24,000 nt of DNA from Cohaesibacter sp. (GTDB lineage Bacteria; Pseudomonadota; Alphaproteobacteria; Rhizobiales; MH13), in assembly GCA_043513735.1 (NCBI GenBank), contig CP121339.1, positions 1,415,000 to 1,438,999 on the forward strand, in the 5' to 3' direction. Position 1 is the first letter of the stretch, and every line of letters starts with the position of its first letter. A program made the position numbers and the translations under genes. Below are positions 1,028 through 23,691 of this stretch, piece by piece. Under the pieces are notes generated by a model. It did no database searches and was not told where the DNA came from. It was given only the letters and a program-made list of their open reading frames with translations.

Positions 1028-1653
1028 AACAGCGCGTCGCAATACTGATTTCCGGGCGCGGCTCCAACATGCAGGCTTTGGTGCAGGCGGCGAACCAGCC
1101 TGACTATCCCGCCGAAGTCGTTCTGGTGGTTGCCAATCGACCTGACGCTGCCGGCCTGGCTTGGGCCGCAGATCAGGGGATCGCAACGGCTGTGGTCGAC
1201 CACAAAGCCTTTAAGAAAGACCGTGAAGCGTTCGAGCGGGCGATTCACGCCGAACTTAAAAAGGCCCACGCGGATGTCGTTTGTCTGGCTGGGTTCATGC
1301 GGCTGCTGACGCCCTGGTTTATTGGCCAATGGCACAACCTTTTGATCAACATCCACCCCTCGCTCCTACCCTGTTTTAAGGGGCTCAATACCCATCAACG
1401 CGCGCTCGATGCAGGGGTGAAACTGCATGGTTGCACAGTGCATTTCGTACGGCCAGACATGGATGCCGGGCCCATCATCGCCCAGAAAGCCGTACCGGTT
1501 CTGGATGATGATGACCCCGACACTTTGGCGGAACGCGTCCTGGCGGCGGAACACGCGCTCTACCCACACGCGCTTGCTGAGGTAGTCCGGGGATTAGAAG
1601 GCAACCTGACCATCAAAGCCGAGCGCGTGATTGGTATCCGTCCTATCGAATAG
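1024..1653 (+). CDS. purN: Phosphoribosylglycinamide formyltransferase
   Basis: 209 aa. It has the N-terminal ILISGRGSN motif, the formyltransferase signature NIHPSLLP, and GCTVHFV...DAGPIIAQ. It is translationally coupled to purM. Confidence 0.95.
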
Positions 1654-2695
1654 GAGGATGGGCACGTGGTGGCCGGCGTAATCCAGCCCCTTCCCCACCA
1701 GGACGACTGCGTGGCTGCTGGGCGGAACCAGAGCGCGCGTTCTGTTTGGAGAAGCTGTCATCGGGCGTCCCAGCAAAGCAGCGCGGCACAAACGGAAACT
1801 CGTCGGTGATCACATAGTAATAGGTGCCGTCGGGATATTCCGGCGTGACCCCAACGCGGCCATTGCAGGCATCCAGCGTGCCCGAGCCCGGCACATATTC
1901 CCAATCGGCCGTGAAGGTGCCGTCATAGGCACCGCCCGGGCCGGATGAGCGTGTACCGGGGCGTAGTTGATAGCTGGAATCCATCACCTCTAGGCCAGAT
2001 GAAGGATCATCAGAGTCGGCGTAGCTGAGCGGCCCATAAACCGGGAAACCGTCAGCGGCATAGCCAATCAGCGTCGGTGCGCCAGCGCTTGCCAGCCGGT
2101 CGTAAAGGGCGTCCGGGATGCCATGATAGTGGTAGGCGCCGTTGGGCTGCACATGGGCGTTGCTTGAGTCTAAACCCAGCGAGCGGGTCTGCGGCCCAAA
2201 CGCTTCATAGTTCCAACCTGAGGAGCGATCATTGTTCCAAAATTCAGCCGTTGCTGGGTCAAAAATCACGCCATTAAGCGCTACGCCAAAGACGTAACGG
2301 TCGGCGCTGGTTGGCGAGCTGCTGGTGCTTGGATTGGTAGGCATATCAAAGCGGTAGCTCTGGGTGGAAATGCTGTTTGGATTGTTGGCGTTGGGGAACT
2401 GGCCAGGCGCGTGGTCTGGCAAGCCGTCGGCAACAATAGTGCGCACAGCGCCATTGGATGAGATCGAGATGTTGGCTGCGGCTTCGACTGAACCAAGTAA
2501 CAACTCTTCCAGAAGCTCGTCCAACCAGCTCGTGTCCTCTTCCACCAGCGCTTGGCCGGTGGCGGCAACCTCTTCATCATGGCTGCCATGGGCAAAAACA
2601 TCGCTTGGCAAAGCGGTGGTCGCGAGAAGCACGGCGACCATGGATGCCATACCAAGGCGCTTGAGCAGGTCGGTTTTGGGGTGAGTATCGGTCAT
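1643..2695 (-). CDS. Secreted YHYH-domain protein of unknown function
   Basis: 350 aa. The N-terminus is signal-peptide-like (LGMASMVAVLLATTALPSDVFA/HG) and is followed by a His/acidic stretch (HGSHDEE). The family-defining motif GAYHYHGIP is present. The 3' end overlaps the convergent purN by 11 nt. Confidence 0.75.
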   Translation of the reverse strand: MTDTHPKTDLLKRLGMASMVAVLLATTALPSDVFAHGSHDEEVAATGQALVEEDTSWLDELLEELLLGSVEAAANISISSNGAVRTIVADGLPDHAPGQFPNANNPNSISTQSYRFDMPTNPSTSSSPTSADRYVFGVALNGVIFDPATAEFWNNDRSSGWNYEAFGPQTRSLGLDSSNAHVQPNGAYHYHGIPDALYDRLASAGAPTLIGYAADGFPVYGPLSYADSDDPSSGLEVMDSSYQLRPGTRSSGPGGAYDGTFTADWEYVPGSGTLDACNGRVGVTPEYPDGTYYYVITDEFPFVPRCFAGTPDDSFSKQNARSGSAQQPRSRPGGEGAGLRRPPRAHPPIR

Positions 2696-2957
2696 GGCGT
2701 TCGCCCTTTTTCATCGGTTCGCTCACGAGTTTGTGAGCACACCGTGAAGGTGAGCGAGACGCAGACCTTGCACCAGTTAAGGCTACGTCATGTTCCCAGT
2801 TTGTCCGTTACAAGTGCGTCATGACATTTTGGACAGGTTTGGGTGTGGAGCTGCTTGGGTCGGAGCAAAGAGGGCTGTTAGCAGCTGAAAACTCCCAACC
2901 TGGCCAATGCCGACGTAGGAGCAAAACGACCAACGATGGCTATTGCTGTTTGGACAG

Positions 2958-3482
2958 CTAATGCCCGGTTACATAAGCGTAAGAACTCTGCACGAGCTGA
3001 AAAACCACGTCGAGTTCGGCATCAGTTACGGGCGTATAAATCATGACAAATCCTCCCCATCCTTCTCGCTGACCAGACCAAGGGTGCGACACTGCCCAAC
3101 CTGCTTCAACCGCGGCATCTGCGGTGTCTGGATGCAACGAAGCGTGGAGACTGCCATCAGGGTGCAGATGTGCAAACTCGCGCCCTCCGACAACGGCTTC
3201 TGGATGTGCCAGAGGCAGATCTTCGTCCAAGTGGAAACCGACCGCTCCAGGTAGCGAGATGCGCGTTGGACCAAGGGCGACACCGGGCAATTCCGCAACG
3301 AGGCGCAGCAACTCATCAGAAAGTTCCGGAACCGCATCAACGCCAATTTGGACATGTGGGACGCCGTTCGTGGTGCGTGGAATTGGTGTTTCGCGATCAG
3401 GCAGGCGCATCTCTTGAGCTAAGACCGAGGGCGCAATCGCAACCATCGCAACCAGTGCAAGTGGAAACAGTTGATGGATCAT
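2958..3482 (-). CDS. Secreted luciferase-family / DUF5519-like protein
   Basis: 174 aa. It has a signal peptide (MIHQLFPLALVAMVAIAPSVLA/QE). The blocks VPHVQ, ELPGV, REFAHLHPDGSLHASL, GWAVSHPW and VMIYTP...ELDVVFQLVQSSY match my recollection of the bacterial luciferase-domain (DUF5519) family. This was not checked by search. Confidence 0.6.
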   Translation of the reverse strand: MIHQLFPLALVAMVAIAPSVLAQEMRLPDRETPIPRTTNGVPHVQIGVDAVPELSDELLRLVAELPGVALGPTRISLPGAVGFHLDEDLPLAHPEAVVGGREFAHLHPDGSLHASLHPDTADAAVEAGWAVSHPWSGQREGWGGFVMIYTPVTDAELDVVFQLVQSSYAYVTGH

Positions 3483-3520
3483 GACCTTATGCGCTCCTGT
3501 TTAAGTGTCTATGGGTGGTT

Positions 3521-3529
3521 TGTGGATAA
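3521..3529 (-). promoter_or_regulatory. Perfect DnaA-box 9-mer (TTATCCACA on the minus strand)
   Basis: The + strand reads TGTGGATAA at 3521-3529, 39-47 nt upstream of the start codon at 3482 and directly after the GC hairpin at 3534-3556. Only the sequence match is seen; function is unproven. Confidence 0.3.
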
Positions 3530-3533
3530 GGCT

Positions 3534-3556
3534 GGAGAGGCGCGACGCGCCCCTCC
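3534..3556 (-). terminator. GC-rich hairpin downstream of the NTF2-like gene (possible terminator or attenuator, no U-tract)
   Basis: GGAGAGGCGCGACGCGCCCCTCC is a 23-nt near-perfect palindrome (9 bp plus 1 mismatch, 3-nt loop) starting 37 nt after the stop at 3593. No T-run follows it on either strand. Confidence 0.35.
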
Positions 3557-3592
3557 TGTGCTCGTTGCAATGCAAGATACTTGCCGCAGCGA

Positions 3593-4153
3593 TTACTCAG
3601 CTGGGGGCAAAACGCTGTGACCAACAGTCGACAGGTCTTCTTCTGTGATCCTCCAGCCTTCATCGGTATCAACCAATGTTCCTGTCCAATGAATGAAGTG
3701 CGTTTCAGGGCCTTGGTGTTCGCTGAAGTGCGTGGCCGTGATCATCCCGGATACGGTGGCATTTTGCGGCCCATCAAACGTCACGCGCAGAGTGTCCAGT
3801 TGGTGATGTGTTGACGTAAAACCGGCCATTTGAAAGCCCATTTGCGCGAGGGCTCCGCGCATGGCTGCACCGCGCAAATCCGGCTGACTGGCAAGAAATG
3901 CACAGTCTTCTCCAGGGCAAACAATCGAGGCGCTGACGAAGTTTAGGCGTGAGATGAGGTCTTCGCCCCAACACGCGCTCCAGATCGCCATGCCCTCTTC
4001 AACCTCGCCAACGCTGATCATGTCGATCCCGTGCGGGAAACACGCCACATGGTTCACGACCTCTGCATAGGTATCGGCGTAGCCTTCAAAGGGCGCGTCG
4101 GCCAAGGCGGGCTGGGCTGCAAAAAAGGCAAGCAGTGCCAAAAGCTTTCTCAT
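3593..4153 (-). CDS. Secreted NTF2/SnoaL-like fold protein
   Basis: 186 aa. It has a clear signal peptide (MRKLLALLAFFAAQPALA/DA). Size and sequence pattern fit the nuclear-transport-factor-2/SnoaL-like superfamily. Five Cys residues fit a periplasmic disulfide-bonded protein. It is divergent from the TetR gene. Confidence 0.55.
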   Translation of the reverse strand: MRKLLALLAFFAAQPALADAPFEGYADTYAEVVNHVACFPHGIDMISVGEVEEGMAIWSACWGEDLISRLNFVSASIVCPGEDCAFLASQPDLRGAAMRGALAQMGFQMAGFTSTHHQLDTLRVTFDGPQNATVSGMITATHFSEHQGPETHFIHWTGTLVDTDEGWRITEEDLSTVGHSVLPPAE

Positions 4154-4225
4154 TTGATAGTCCTTCTTCGGTAGAAATTGGATGAGCGAAATTGAGTCCT
4201 AGCTCGCCACCAAAATCACTAATAG

Positions 4226-4258
4226 TACAAATTGTATCGTAACGCAACAAACTGTATC
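4226..4258. promoter_or_regulatory. Candidate TetR operator pair in the divergent promoter region
   Basis: TACAA-A-TTGTA is a palindrome at 4226-4236. The 12-mer ACAAATTGTATC (4227-4238) recurs as ACAAACTGTATC (4247-4258), matching 11 of 12 bases and offset by 20 bp. Both lie between the divergent NTF2-like gene (start 4153) and the tetR ATG (4268). Confidence 0.45.
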
Positions 4259-4267
4259 ATAGATGCT

Positions 4268-4855
4268 ATGAGAAGCAACGAAGACCCTCGATTGACCGCG
4301 ACGCGTGTGGCCGCATTGGATGCCGCTCTAAGCATTCTGAAAGAAGATGGGGTCCTGGCTGTGTCGCACGCGGCAATAAGTGCCCGAACCGGCATTTCGC
4401 GCAGCACGCTCTATCGGCATTGGCCCAAGCTTGATGCGCTGCAGAACGCGGCGTTTGCCCACGCTGCGACTGGGCCAACCAGTGTGCCTCGCACAGATGG
4501 CCCGCTGAAGGCCGACCTAACTTGGATGATCGGACGGCTCATGATGGCGTTAAACGAAACACCGTGGGGCAAGATTGCTCCACAGGTGATTGCTGCGGCC
4601 GCTACGGATGACCAAACCCGTACTTTAATAAGCAAGTGGATTGAGGATCGGAGCGCAAACGTTGAAGCAGTTTTCGCTGCCGCCAAAGTCCGTGGCGAAC
4701 TCAAAAAGGACGCGCCGATCCAGCAATTGGTAGAGATGGCGATCGCGATCCCTTATTTCAGAAAGCTGATTGCCGGATTGCAGCTCGATCAAAACTGGCT
4801 GGATGCACATGTTGATATGATTTGCATCCTCGCAACGGAACAGTCAGACGATTGA
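4268..4855 (+). CDS. TetR/AcrR family transcriptional regulator
   Basis: It has an N-terminal HTH (AVSHAAISARTGISRSTLYRHWPKLDAL) and a helical C-terminal ligand domain. I prefer the ATG at 4268 (MRSNEDPRL) over the in-frame TTG at 4232 in the ORF track, because 4232 lies inside the operator-like repeats. Confidence 0.85.
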   Translation: MRSNEDPRLTATRVAALDAALSILKEDGVLAVSHAAISARTGISRSTLYRHWPKLDALQNAAFAHAATGPTSVPRTDGPLKADLTWMIGRLMMALNETPWGKIAPQVIAAAATDDQTRTLISKWIEDRSANVEAVFAAAKVRGELKKDAPIQQLVEMAIAIPYFRKLIAGLQLDQNWLDAHVDMICILATEQSDD

Positions 4856-12534: not shown

Positions 12535-13623
12535 ATGCGACTGTCAGCCTCTCTCAATCGCTATCTCGCCTTGGCTTTCTCCAAGCATGTTGGGTTTGTG
12601 TTTCTTGGCGCCTTTGCGTTGATGCTTATGGTCGACGTCATGGAGCTGACGCGGCGGGGCGCCGACTTAGAGATCCCAATCCAAGCGATTTTCGCGATAT
12701 CTGCCATGCGGCTACCCTCTCTAGCTGAGCAGTTGGTGCCGTTTGCCGTGCTGATCGGTGCGTTGATGACGCTGGTCGCCCTCTCGCGTCGGTCAGAACT
12801 TATCATTGCTCGAGCCTCTGGACTTTCAGCCTGGCAGTTTTTGATACCATTGATTGTGGTAGCTGCGCTCGTCGGGATTGCCGCCTCGTGGCTCTACAAT
12901 CCGTTTTCAGCCAGCCTTAAGGTGCGTTCAGACGCCATTCTAGCGGAGCGGTTTGCCGGCAGCACAACCAATGTCGATCCCGAACGGGAGATTTGGTTCC
13001 GCCAGTCCACCGGCGAGATCATGACTCTGGTGCGAGCCGCGTCAGCGACCGACGCCGGCCAGACGCTAAATCAGGTTAGCGCCATGCTGTTTGACGAAAA
13101 CGGTGACTTCAACCAGCGGGTCGATGCGGATCGCGCCGTGTTGCGCAACGGCGCGTGGAACATGACGGATGTGACGATGACTGACACGCAAGGAGAATCG
13201 CGTGTCGTCGAGGTTTTTTCGCTCGCCACACCACTGACGGCCGATGATGTATTAGGACGGTTCACACCGCCCAGTTCTGTGCCAATTTGGGACCTGCCCG
13301 ACCTTGCAAATAAGGCACAGCAGGCGGGCATTGCGTCCGATCGCTACAGATTCCAATTTCAGGCCTTGCTCGCACGGCCCATGCTGCTTATGGCCATGGT
13401 GTTGGTGGCCGCGACCGTGTCTTTGCGGTTCTCTCGGCATGGGGGAACGACAAAGCTGGTAGTGGCCGGTTTGAGTGCTGGATTTATCGTGTTTGTGGTC
13501 AACGAAATCGCGGGCGACTTGGGCGGAGCTGGATTGGTCAATCCGGTCCTGGCAGCATGGGTGCCACCGATCGCCGCCGGCCTTTTTGGTATAACGGCCT
13601 TGCTGCACCTGGAGGACGGGTGA
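12535..13623 (+). CDS. lptG: LPS export ABC transporter permease LptG
   Basis: 362 aa and a paralog of the preceding permease (LNRYLALAF..., TM helices plus a periplasmic beta-jellyroll region). It begins 2 nt after the lptF stop. Confidence 0.88.
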   Translation: MRLSASLNRYLALAFSKHVGFVFLGAFALMLMVDVMELTRRGADLEIPIQAIFAISAMRLPSLAEQLVPFAVLIGALMTLVALSRRSELIIARASGLSAWQFLIPLIVVAALVGIAASWLYNPFSASLKVRSDAILAERFAGSTTNVDPEREIWFRQSTGEIMTLVRAASATDAGQTLNQVSAMLFDENGDFNQRVDADRAVLRNGAWNMTDVTMTDTQGESRVVEVFSLATPLTADDVLGRFTPPSSVPIWDLPDLANKAQQAGIASDRYRFQFQALLARPMLLMAMVLVAATVSLRFSRHGGTTKLVVAGLSAGFIVFVVNEIAGDLGGAGLVNPVLAAWVPPIAAGLFGITALLHLEDG

Positions 13624-20704: not shown

Positions 20705-21979
20705 CTACTGCTCGGCTGCCGGCGTTTCGACAGCATCGCTTGCCGCATCACGCTGTGCCTCTTCAGCTGCGGCGGCAGCTGCCTCAGCTTCGGCGGCTTC
20801 ACGGGCAGCTTCGCGCTCACGCTCGATTTCCCGCCACCGGGCAACGTTCCGGTTGTGCTCTTCATAGGTCTCGGCAAAGGCATGTCCGCCTGTGCCATCG
20901 GCAACAAAGAACAAATCATCGGTCCGCGACGGATTGGCAACGGCCTCCAGCGAGGCGCGACCAGGATTGGCGATGGGGCCAGGCGGCAGAGCGGGGATTG
21001 TGTAGGTGTTGTAGGGGTTGCTGTCGTCGCGCAATTGGCTGCGGTAGATCGGGCGCGCCTCCATCCAGGCCTCACCACCGAAAATCCCATAGAGGATCGT
21101 CGGGTCGGATTGGATGCGCATGCCCTGTTCCAGACGATTGATGAACACGCCAGCAACGCGGGTGCGCTCATCGGCGCGCGCGGTTTCCTTTTCAACGATC
21201 GATGCCAGCGTCACCAGTTCTTCCGGCGATTCGATTGGCAGATCGCTGACGCGCCTTTCCCAAATGTCTTCGATTGCAGCTTCTTGGGCTGCCACCATGC
21301 GGTCGATCACGCTTTGACGCGTGGCATCGCGGTTGAACGCATAGGTGTTGGGGAGCAGCGCACCTTCGGCTGGGATCTCGGTGATTTCACCGGTCAGGAA
21401 ATCGGTGGCATTCAGGCGATTGACCATCTGAAGGCTCGTCCACCCTTCCGGAAATGTGACGGAATAAACCACAGTCCGGCCCTCGACCATCATGTCGAGA
21501 ATGGCGGCCATGGAGGCGTGGGCGTCGATAGCGTAGTCGCCGGCCTGAAGACGCGAGCGTGCCTGGCGGGCAAGCACACCGGCGGTAAAGATGTGCTCGT
21601 TGGAAATCACGCCGCGCGCTTCCAGCATGCTGGCGATTTCGCGGGTCGCCATGCCGCGCTCAATGGTAATGTTGCGGTCGGCGGTGAGAGGCCCGTCGGC
21701 GTTGAAACGCACATTGGCGAAGTAGGCGAGCGCTCCCAGCACAACAACACCGAGCAAGGCCAGCGAAAACAGGCCGTTCAGCATCACCACGAACGGTGAG
21801 CGGGCACGCCTGGCGTGCTTGGCACTTGGTGGCGCCACTTCCTCAGGCTTGATCGCCTGCGCTGCACTGCGCGGGGTTTCGCCGAGCCGCGTTGCGTCAG
21901 AGGCGTTGTTGTTGGGCGTATCGTTCATGGCATCGCTCTTTGACTGGCTGTCATTTCCATCGTCATCGTTTGCCGCCAC
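20705..21979 (-). CDS. mltG: Endolytic murein transglycosylase MltG (YceG-like) with extended termini
   Basis: A single TM helix (FVVMLNGLFSLALLGVVVLGALAYF) is followed by YceG-domain blocks (ASIVEKE, VFINRL...MRIQSDPT, NPYNTYTIPALPPGPIANPG, FFVADGTGGHAFAETYEEHNRNV). The GTG start at 21979 is uncertain, and the ATG at 21928 (MNDTPNN) is an alternative. Confidence 0.88.
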   Translation of the reverse strand: MAANDDDGNDSQSKSDAMNDTPNNNASDATRLGETPRSAAQAIKPEEVAPPSAKHARRARSPFVVMLNGLFSLALLGVVVLGALAYFANVRFNADGPLTADRNITIERGMATREIASMLEARGVISNEHIFTAGVLARQARSRLQAGDYAIDAHASMAAILDMMVEGRTVVYSVTFPEGWTSLQMVNRLNATDFLTGEITEIPAEGALLPNTYAFNRDATRQSVIDRMVAAQEAAIEDIWERRVSDLPIESPEELVTLASIVEKETARADERTRVAGVFINRLEQGMRIQSDPTILYGIFGGEAWMEARPIYRSQLRDDSNPYNTYTIPALPPGPIANPGRASLEAVANPSRTDDLFFVADGTGGHAFAETYEEHNRNVARWREIEREREAAREAAEAEAAAAAAEEAQRDAASDAVETPAAEQ

Positions 21980-22177: not shown

Positions 22178-23382
22178 TTAATCCACCGCCCGAAGCACCA
22201 GCGAGGCGTTCGTGCCGCCGAAGCCGAAAGAATTGGAAAGCGCGGTACGGATCGGCTTCTTTTTGGCCGTATGCGGCACCAGATCAATCGGTGTTTCGAC
22301 CGAGGGATTATCAAGATTGAGTGTCGGCGGTGCGACACCGTGTTTGATCGCCAGTGTGGTGAAGATCGCCTCCACGGCGCCGGCTGCACCGAGCAAATGG
22401 CCGATGGCGGATTTGGTTGACGACATGGTGAGGCCGGAAGCAGCATCACCCATCAACCGTTCCACCGCGCCAAGTTCGATCTCATCGCCAAGCGGTGTGG
22501 ACGTGCCATGGGCGTTCACATAATCGAGCTCAGAAGGGCTGATATCCGCCCGTTTCAAAGCCGCCGTCATGCAACGGAATGCGCCATCGCCGTCCATCGA
22601 GGGAGCGGTAATATGGTAGGCATCGCCGGAAAGTCCGTAGCCGATCACCTCAGCGTAAATCGTCGCGCCGCGTGCCTTGGCGTGTTCGAGCTCTTCCAGC
22701 ACGACAACGCCTGCACCCTCGCCCATGACGAAGCCATCACGGTCCTTGTCATAGGGGCGTGAGCCTTTCTCCGGCGTGTCGTTGAAAGCGGTTGAAAGCG
22801 CCTTGCAAGCCGCGAAGCCGGCAAGCGCAATGCGGCCAAGCGGCGATTCGGTGCCGCCGGCCACCATCACGTCGGCATCATCAAGCCTTTCAGGCCATGC
22901 TTGATCGACACATAGCCCGATGCAAGATTGATCAACCGACCGGGAATAAAGAACGGGCTGAGGCGGCGCGGCCCCTTCTCATGCATCGTCATGGTGCCAG
23001 CGGCGATACCGTTCAGACCACCAATACCCGATCCGATGAGCACACCCGTGCGGGTCTGATCTTCATAGCTTTCAGGATGCCAATTGGCGTCGGCCAGTGC
23101 TTCGTCCGAGGCCGCCATCGCATAGACGATGAAATCATCGACCTTGCGCTGCTCTTTGGGCACCATAACGCTGTCGGGATTGAACGTACCGTTCGATCCG
23201 TCACCGCGTGGAATCTGGCAGGCGATCTGGCATGCCAGATCATCCACCTCAAACCCTTCGGGCCGTCCGGCGCCGGATTGGCCGTCGATGAGACGGCCCC
23301 AGGTGGTCTTGGCGTCCGCGCCCAAAGGCGTGACCATGCCAAGCCCGGTGATCACAACACGCCGAAGCTTGGTCATTGTCAT
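22178..23382 (-). pseudogene. fabF: Beta-ketoacyl-ACP synthase II (KAS II) disrupted by an internal deletion and frameshift that removes the catalytic Cys segment
   Basis: The N-terminal ORF (22867-23382) is RRVVITGLGMVTPLG...[23 protein letters not shown] followed by LMMPT*. The C-terminal ORF (22178-22870) continues in another frame as (L)[14 protein letters not shown]...[11 protein letters not shown]...GHLLGAAG...[14 protein letters not shown]. The roughly 24-residue block that in KAS II sits between these two (PNHSVVTAC-S/T-TGAHAIGDAARLIA type, carrying the nucleophilic Cys) is absent. The gene lies in the canonical fabG-acpP-fabF order. Confidence 0.8.
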
Positions 23383-23454: not shown

Positions 23455-23691
23455 TTACTTCGAAGCGCCTTCCAGGAACTTCACGGCATCGCCAACGGTG
23501 AGGATAGTTTCGGCCATGTCGTCGGGGATTTCGACGTTGAATTCTTCTTCAAACGCCATCACCAACTCGACGGTGTCGAGGCTGTCTGCGCCAAGATCAT
23601 CGATGAACGATGCTTTTTCTTCAACCTTGTCGGCTTCGACGCCAAGGTGCTCGACAACAATTTTCTTCACGCGGTCAGCGACATCGCTCAT
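23455..23691 (-). CDS. acpP: Acyl carrier protein
   Basis: 78 aa. [18 protein letters not shown]...[20 protein letters not shown] contains the phosphopantetheine-attachment Ser in the DSL motif. Confidence 0.97.

Follow-up and report, generated by a model that had tools for sequence, protein, structure and literature searches.

The condensing enzymes KAS I and KAS II have a Cys-His-His triad (PMC7645780; PMC4793157). FabF of E. coli is described as dispensable, with FabB able to cover for it, and FabB of Shewanella as elongating even C16:1 (PMC4793157). Overproduction of FabF is described as killing E. coli or strongly inhibiting it (PMC3896788; PMC4793157). Intact members of the FabF family (TIGR03150; PF00109 and PF02801), for instance P0134, the Ahrensia marina protein WP_375570012 (P0132) and the proteins of the structures 3KZU and 3E60, have in common with the locus described here the arrangement fabD-fabG-acpP-fabF-mltG. 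Compared with this family the locus lacks 24 residues which carry the active-site cysteine and is frameshifted, so that it cannot encode an active member. Null mutants of fabF in E. coli resemble it in the loss of KAS II in a proteobacterium; these are, however, laboratory alleles in a host with a known FabB, whereas in the present case a back-up KAS is hypothetical. Ketosynthase homologues which are non-catalytic by nature, such as KS-beta, the chain-length factor in type II polyketide synthases, likewise have a KS fold without the active-site cysteine. They are full-length and conserved with the residue substituted, whereas here a segment is deleted and the frame is broken, a state which occurs in no orthologue.

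In the 24,000-nucleotide stretch of DNA which was analysed, called the window in the following, a fabF homologue lies on the minus strand at positions 22178-23382, downstream of acpP within the fab cluster as at the orthologous position, and can be read as two ORFs of 171 and 230 amino acids (Table 1). The fabF equivalog TIGR03150 of NCBIfam has 407 positions and a curated cutoff of 493.75 bits. The N-terminal ORF matches its positions 1-154 with 173.4 bits and the C-terminal ORF its positions 182-407 with 369.8 bits, each fragment remaining below the cutoff and positions 155-181 being left uncovered. The start and the stop of fabF are identical in the window and in intact orthologues, and the C-terminal remnant closes with ...LVLRAVD followed by the stop codon. 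Both catalytic histidine motifs of KAS II (HGTxTP and GHxxGAAG) are contained in this remnant as NAHGTSTP and GHLLGAAG; the motif of the nucleophilic cysteine, A-C-S/T-x-G, is missing from the window fabF.

Table 1. Coordinates of the disrupted fabF gene and of the genes next to it, in positions of the window
Feature	Position	Strand	Remarks
acpP	23455..23691	-	intact, directly upstream of fabF; NF002151, 146 bits
N-terminal fabF fragment ORF	22867..23382	-	166 native residues, 5 frameshifted residues (LMMPT) and TGA
Deletion junction	22885..22887	-	AAAGG/CTTGAT; positional ambiguity of 1 nt (G)
C-terminal fabF remnant	22178..22885	-	235 codons and stop, shifted frame
C-terminal fabF ORF, mechanical call	22178..22870	-	230 aa, GTG start
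Overlap of the two fabF ORFs	22867..22870		GTGA
mltG (yceG)	20705..21979	-	intact, 198 nt downstream of fabF; TIGR00247; 424 aa as in loci L084 and L086

Alignment of the DNA with six intact orthologous loci yielded one gap of exactly 73 nt in the window fabF, which corresponds to the last base of codon Gly166 and the 24 codons that follow. The peptide absent from the window protein comprises the 24 residues PNHAVVTACSTGAHAIGDAARLVA including the active-site motif A-C-S-T-G. In solved KAS II structures the strand-Cys-helix element deleted here lies in the core of the thiolase fold. The junction is GG/CTT between 22886 and 22885 or, equivalently, G/GCTT, with a microhomology of 1 nt, and the BLAST segments of the window against the orthologues abut at 22886. 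Neither in the window nor in L084, an intact relative, is the junction flanked by a direct repeat, and no repeat brackets the deleted segment in either of them. A repeat-mediated deletion was therefore rejected. A hairpin-mediated deletion was rejected as well, as the deleted segment is not enclosed by the long-range stem (GGTCCC/GGGACC) predicted in the intact relative.

The collected homologues carry the 24-residue segment without exception (134 of 134), all but one of them with the pattern AC[SAT][ST]G (133 of 134), and because of this the gap in fabF is, judged by the alignment, not a chance feature. With the fusion of both parts as query, all matches of a protein search were full-length KAS II, with lengths of 419-437 amino acids and P0001 (425 amino acids) as the best match, and the homologues and loci are all continuous through the segment. 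A preliminary description of the locus had recognised the two ORFs with their GTGA overlap and the retained histidine regions, and these were recovered with the same coordinates. It had further concluded from the frame change that 3n+1 nt, roughly 73, had been lost together with the catalytic cysteine segment, and had proposed an alignment with close relatives; this alignment defined the loss as exactly 73 nt, 24 residues and a microhomology of one G. The junction, which had been placed near 22884/22885, was located roughly correctly and is at 22885/22886, 1-2 nt away. That intact orthologues might naturally be devoid of the cysteine segment, as had also been considered, is excluded by the homologues.

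Two further features of the gene were observed. Codon 155 (22918-22920, minus strand), situated upstream of the junction at a distance of about 30 nt, is changed from GGT to TCG, replacing glycine by serine. All three bases differ from the close relatives, and such a change of a whole codon beside the deletion is unusual; since most members of the wider family have serine in this column (96 of 134), it is probably without harm. At 22781-22800 of the plus strand the C-terminal part of fabF contains a perfect 10-nt tandem repeat (GTTGAAAGCG twice) in the codons for STAFND, which is imperfect in the relatives with the length unchanged and is a potential slippage site.

The closest intact fabF genes show 8-16% nucleotide difference from the window (84-92% nucleotide identity of the loci). 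Over 401 positions seven amino acids differ in P0134 and seven in P0125, which are encoded by loci L084-L088, 13 in P0132 and 16 in P0001, which is encoded by loci L001-L003; P0134, from a metagenome contig, is the closest intact orthologue. Loci of sufficient length contain fabD-fabG-acpP-fabF-mltG-yicC-gmk, followed by rsmA-pdxA-surA-lptD-lptG-lptF on the opposite strand. The order acpP-fabF-mltG-yicC-gmk is common to the window, L001-L003, L084 and L086-L087, and on the shorter contigs L085 and L088 acpP-fabF-mltG is all that is visible. In every relative examined fabF is intact, with the exception of L089 (L089:2005-3438, a Logan contig of SRR31053318). There the gene is intact at the site of the 73 nt and lacks one nucleotide in a run of C near codon 306, which leads to a read-through ORF of 477 amino acids (P0389). 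This 1-nt indel is probably an assembly error, and it shows that public assemblies of this clade can contain apparent frameshifts in fabF.

The 171-amino-acid fragment of the window is identical to P0269, for which one NCBI contig of 3,911,877 bp is on record, presumably that of the genome from which the window comes; the 3.91 Mb of this contig suggest a finished-grade assembly. The cluster of P0269 has one further member, P0389 of L089, which belongs to a different species with 86% nucleotide identity in fabF. Searches for further copies gave the following results. The best match of the fused FabF among the matches listed in the genome contigs (at least 600) was 75% identical. The products of yicC, gmk and pdxA, P0269 and the two fabF halves, also when read from alternative starts, had no exact entry in the gene-position index, which covers this genome only in part. 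The collections yielded no conspecific assembly, and the best MltG match in them had 94% amino acid identity. A 45-mer spanning the junction was absent from the metagenome collection, and so was a 29-mer which the window and L001-L003 share without a change. No near-identical DNA was present in PLSDB, some entries of which are mislabelled chromosomes.

The remainder of the window is in good order. Uninterrupted genes are purM, purN, a YHYH-domain gene, a luciferase-domain gene, a SnoaL-like gene, a TetR gene, ndk, a GST gene, an ABC-F ATPase gene, a YbjN-like gene, holC, pepA, lptF, lptG, lptD, surA, pdxA, rsmA, gmk, yicC, mltG, and acpP. The lengths of mltG, yicC, gmk, pdxA, lptG, and lptF equal those of the closest relatives, and domain or family matches of purM, purN, ndk, GST, ABC-F, pepA, holC, and acpP are consistent with intact genes. 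The earlier statement that the other genes of the window are intact thus holds for about 22 genes, the lengths of which, where a comparison was possible, equal those of the relatives or nearly so. Because frameshifts are absent from all other genes of the 24 kb, the base-level quality of the window looks high and unlike that of an error-rich long-read consensus. Between purMN and ndk, at 1643-4855, a small accessory gene group was noticed, which consists of a YHYH-domain gene (350 aa), a luciferase-domain gene (174 aa), a SnoaL-like gene (186 aa), and a divergent TetR gene (207 aa) and has a slight dip in GC to 0.53-0.56. The longest ORF of lptD (812 aa) shares 67 nt, at 13557-13623, with the end of lptG; since lptD of the relatives is called at 797-806 aa, the true start is probably further downstream. 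Scans of the window yielded no Rfam families and no tRNAs. The promoter and terminator scan gave no promoter-like site and four terminator-like sites, each on the opposite strand and in a number within chance expectation. With the E. coli proteins as tblastn queries neither the window nor any of the 89 loci fetched gave a fabA or a fabB, and a second KAS, be it fabB or a second fabF, was likewise absent from the window and these 89 loci.

The age of the lesion was estimated from single-site changes over the 401 retained codons, which were polarised with the L001 group as outgroup. The window lineage of fabF has accumulated 50 synonymous and 4 nonsynonymous changes and the lineage of its intact sister L084 49 synonymous and 7 nonsynonymous ones (Fisher p = 0.53). 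In the comparison of the window with L084, fabF has a pairwise omega of 0.019, the lowest among six local genes measured; the respective values are 0.027 for acpP, 0.030 for gmk, 0.044 for mltG, 0.079 for yicC, and 0.124 for pdxA. Three amino acid changes are specific for the window (D29G, N71S, and G155S). All of them are in variable columns with residues common in the family, and no FabF residue is unique to the window among 135 sequences. Neither half of fabF has a second stop or indel. For a branch neutral throughout, 50 synonymous changes would predict about 149 nonsynonymous ones, and the four observed limit a neutral phase to at most about 6% of the window branch (95% Poisson upper bound). 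The 401 remaining codons are thus without decay, and the deletion is very recent, fabF having been under the strongest local constraint until the evolutionary present.

These data bear on the question whether the gene is a long-standing pseudogene, tolerated since another KAS took over. Nothing but the disruption itself speaks for such a history. An old pseudogene is ruled out, since the deletion spans at most some 6% of the branch; the excess of nonsynonymous changes is missing, the three window-specific replacements occur where the family varies and introduce residues frequent in it, and omega is not raised in a gene with a single lesion. A genuine pseudogene, one of the options of the preliminary description, can hence be upheld as a very recent event and is excluded as an old one, which we consider extremely improbable. 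A persistence of the two halves as non-catalytic polypeptides with a role of their own, for example as a scaffold or partner of FabD or ACP, with translation coupled through GTGA, would be in line with the stop/start overlap and with the retention of both histidine motifs and the entire C-terminal domain. The retention is, however, accounted for by the recency of the deletion, and the GTGA overlap is a by-product of ORF delimitation. A split was found in none of the 134 homologues and in no fetched locus, and the sole other disrupted copy, that of L089, bears a different lesion. In the nearest solved sequence relatives (PDB 3KZU and 3E60) the chain runs through this region without a break. No Shine-Dalgarno-like sequence was seen by eye 5-10 nt upstream of the GTG or ATG, the only candidate being AAAGG about 16-20 nt upstream. 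The suggestion of retained halves, which had been put forward as the least likely one, thus remained unsupported by orthologues and translation signals alike, and it is very improbable. Taken together, these two readings have a very low probability.

It is more difficult to decide between a deletion in the DNA of the organism and an artefact, in which the 73 nt were lost in assembly, polishing, strain-mixture consensus or a library clone and the fabF of the organism is intact with 425 amino acids. The latter had also been listed in the preliminary description and is a serious contender, to which we assign somewhat less than an even chance. It would readily explain a gene which is pristine apart from the gap, with substitution counts like those of the sister, no unique residues and no second lesion, in a universally retained core gene which is intact in the relatives bar L089. 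The 1-nt indel of L089 in a Logan contig gives a precedent for apparent frameshifts in fabF, and the deletion was seen in no second data set. One speculative variant is a library clone selected in E. coli, where heterologous active FabF would be harmful; because overproduction of FabF is toxic to E. coli, a deletion removing the cysteine is what selection among clones would favour. On the other hand, a clean loss of 73 nt with a microhomology of 1 nt is not a typical signature of read errors, no repeat is present which might mislead an assembler, and about 22 other genes of the window are free of indels. A null allele of fabF which arose by one very recent 73-bp deletion and is real in the sequenced DNA, be it at strain level, acquired in culture or as a variant of the population, has about an even chance and is slightly more likely than the artefact. 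The usual sequencing error is an indel of 1-2 nt in a homopolymer, which the loss of 73 nt does not resemble. A shortcut in the assembly graph is not known to arise without sequence common to both flanks, which here amounts to 1 nt only, and a consensus gap of 73 nt in a finished-grade assembly of 3.9 Mb would need the support of most reads. Against a real deletion stands the fact that fabF is intact in every relative examined except L089 and is under the strongest constraint among the six local genes measured, so that its loss should be costly. Relaxed selection in fabF is not detectable at all, a picture which an artefact would produce identically, and the search of the metagenome collection with the 45-mer revealed no second data set with the junction.

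If the deletion is real, illegitimate end-joining or an error of replication would fit the junction better than repeat-mediated slippage, because a microhomology of 1 nt is present and a flanking repeat is absent. No single product of the locus as sequenced can perform the acyl-enzyme step of KAS II, because the cysteine segment is gone and the frame is broken with a stop five codons on. The cell would then rely on another long-chain condensing enzyme, for example a FabB or a second FabF encoded at another place in the genome. By analogy with E. coli fabF null mutants, which survive in this way (PMC4793157; PMC3896788), a viable organism would be expected in which another KAS elongates and the balance of C16:1 and C18:1 is altered. 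It is a doubtful proposition that the sole housekeeping KAS II of a marine, free-living alphaproteobacterium similar to Ahrensia has only now been lost, with FabB or another enzyme elongating everything including C16:1 to C18:1. In alphaproteobacteria of this group C18:1 is typically the main fatty acid, and the cost of fabF loss could therefore exceed that in E. coli.

The lesion as such is accurately described and ordinary, a single very recent 73-bp loss of function in a well-known gene. Either way no new mechanism is involved, and the chief practical value of the finding is a flag to re-check the assembly; in the case of an artefact there is an error in a public genome, with fabF mis-annotated there as a pseudogene. 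If the deletion is true, a marine alphaproteobacterium has, in nature or in culture, lost the function of the most constrained among six local genes measured, and a shifted fatty acid profile would be predicted for it, together with a FabB-type enzyme of broader chain-length range in this clade. The locus would then be a natural counterpart of the laboratory fabF null alleles.
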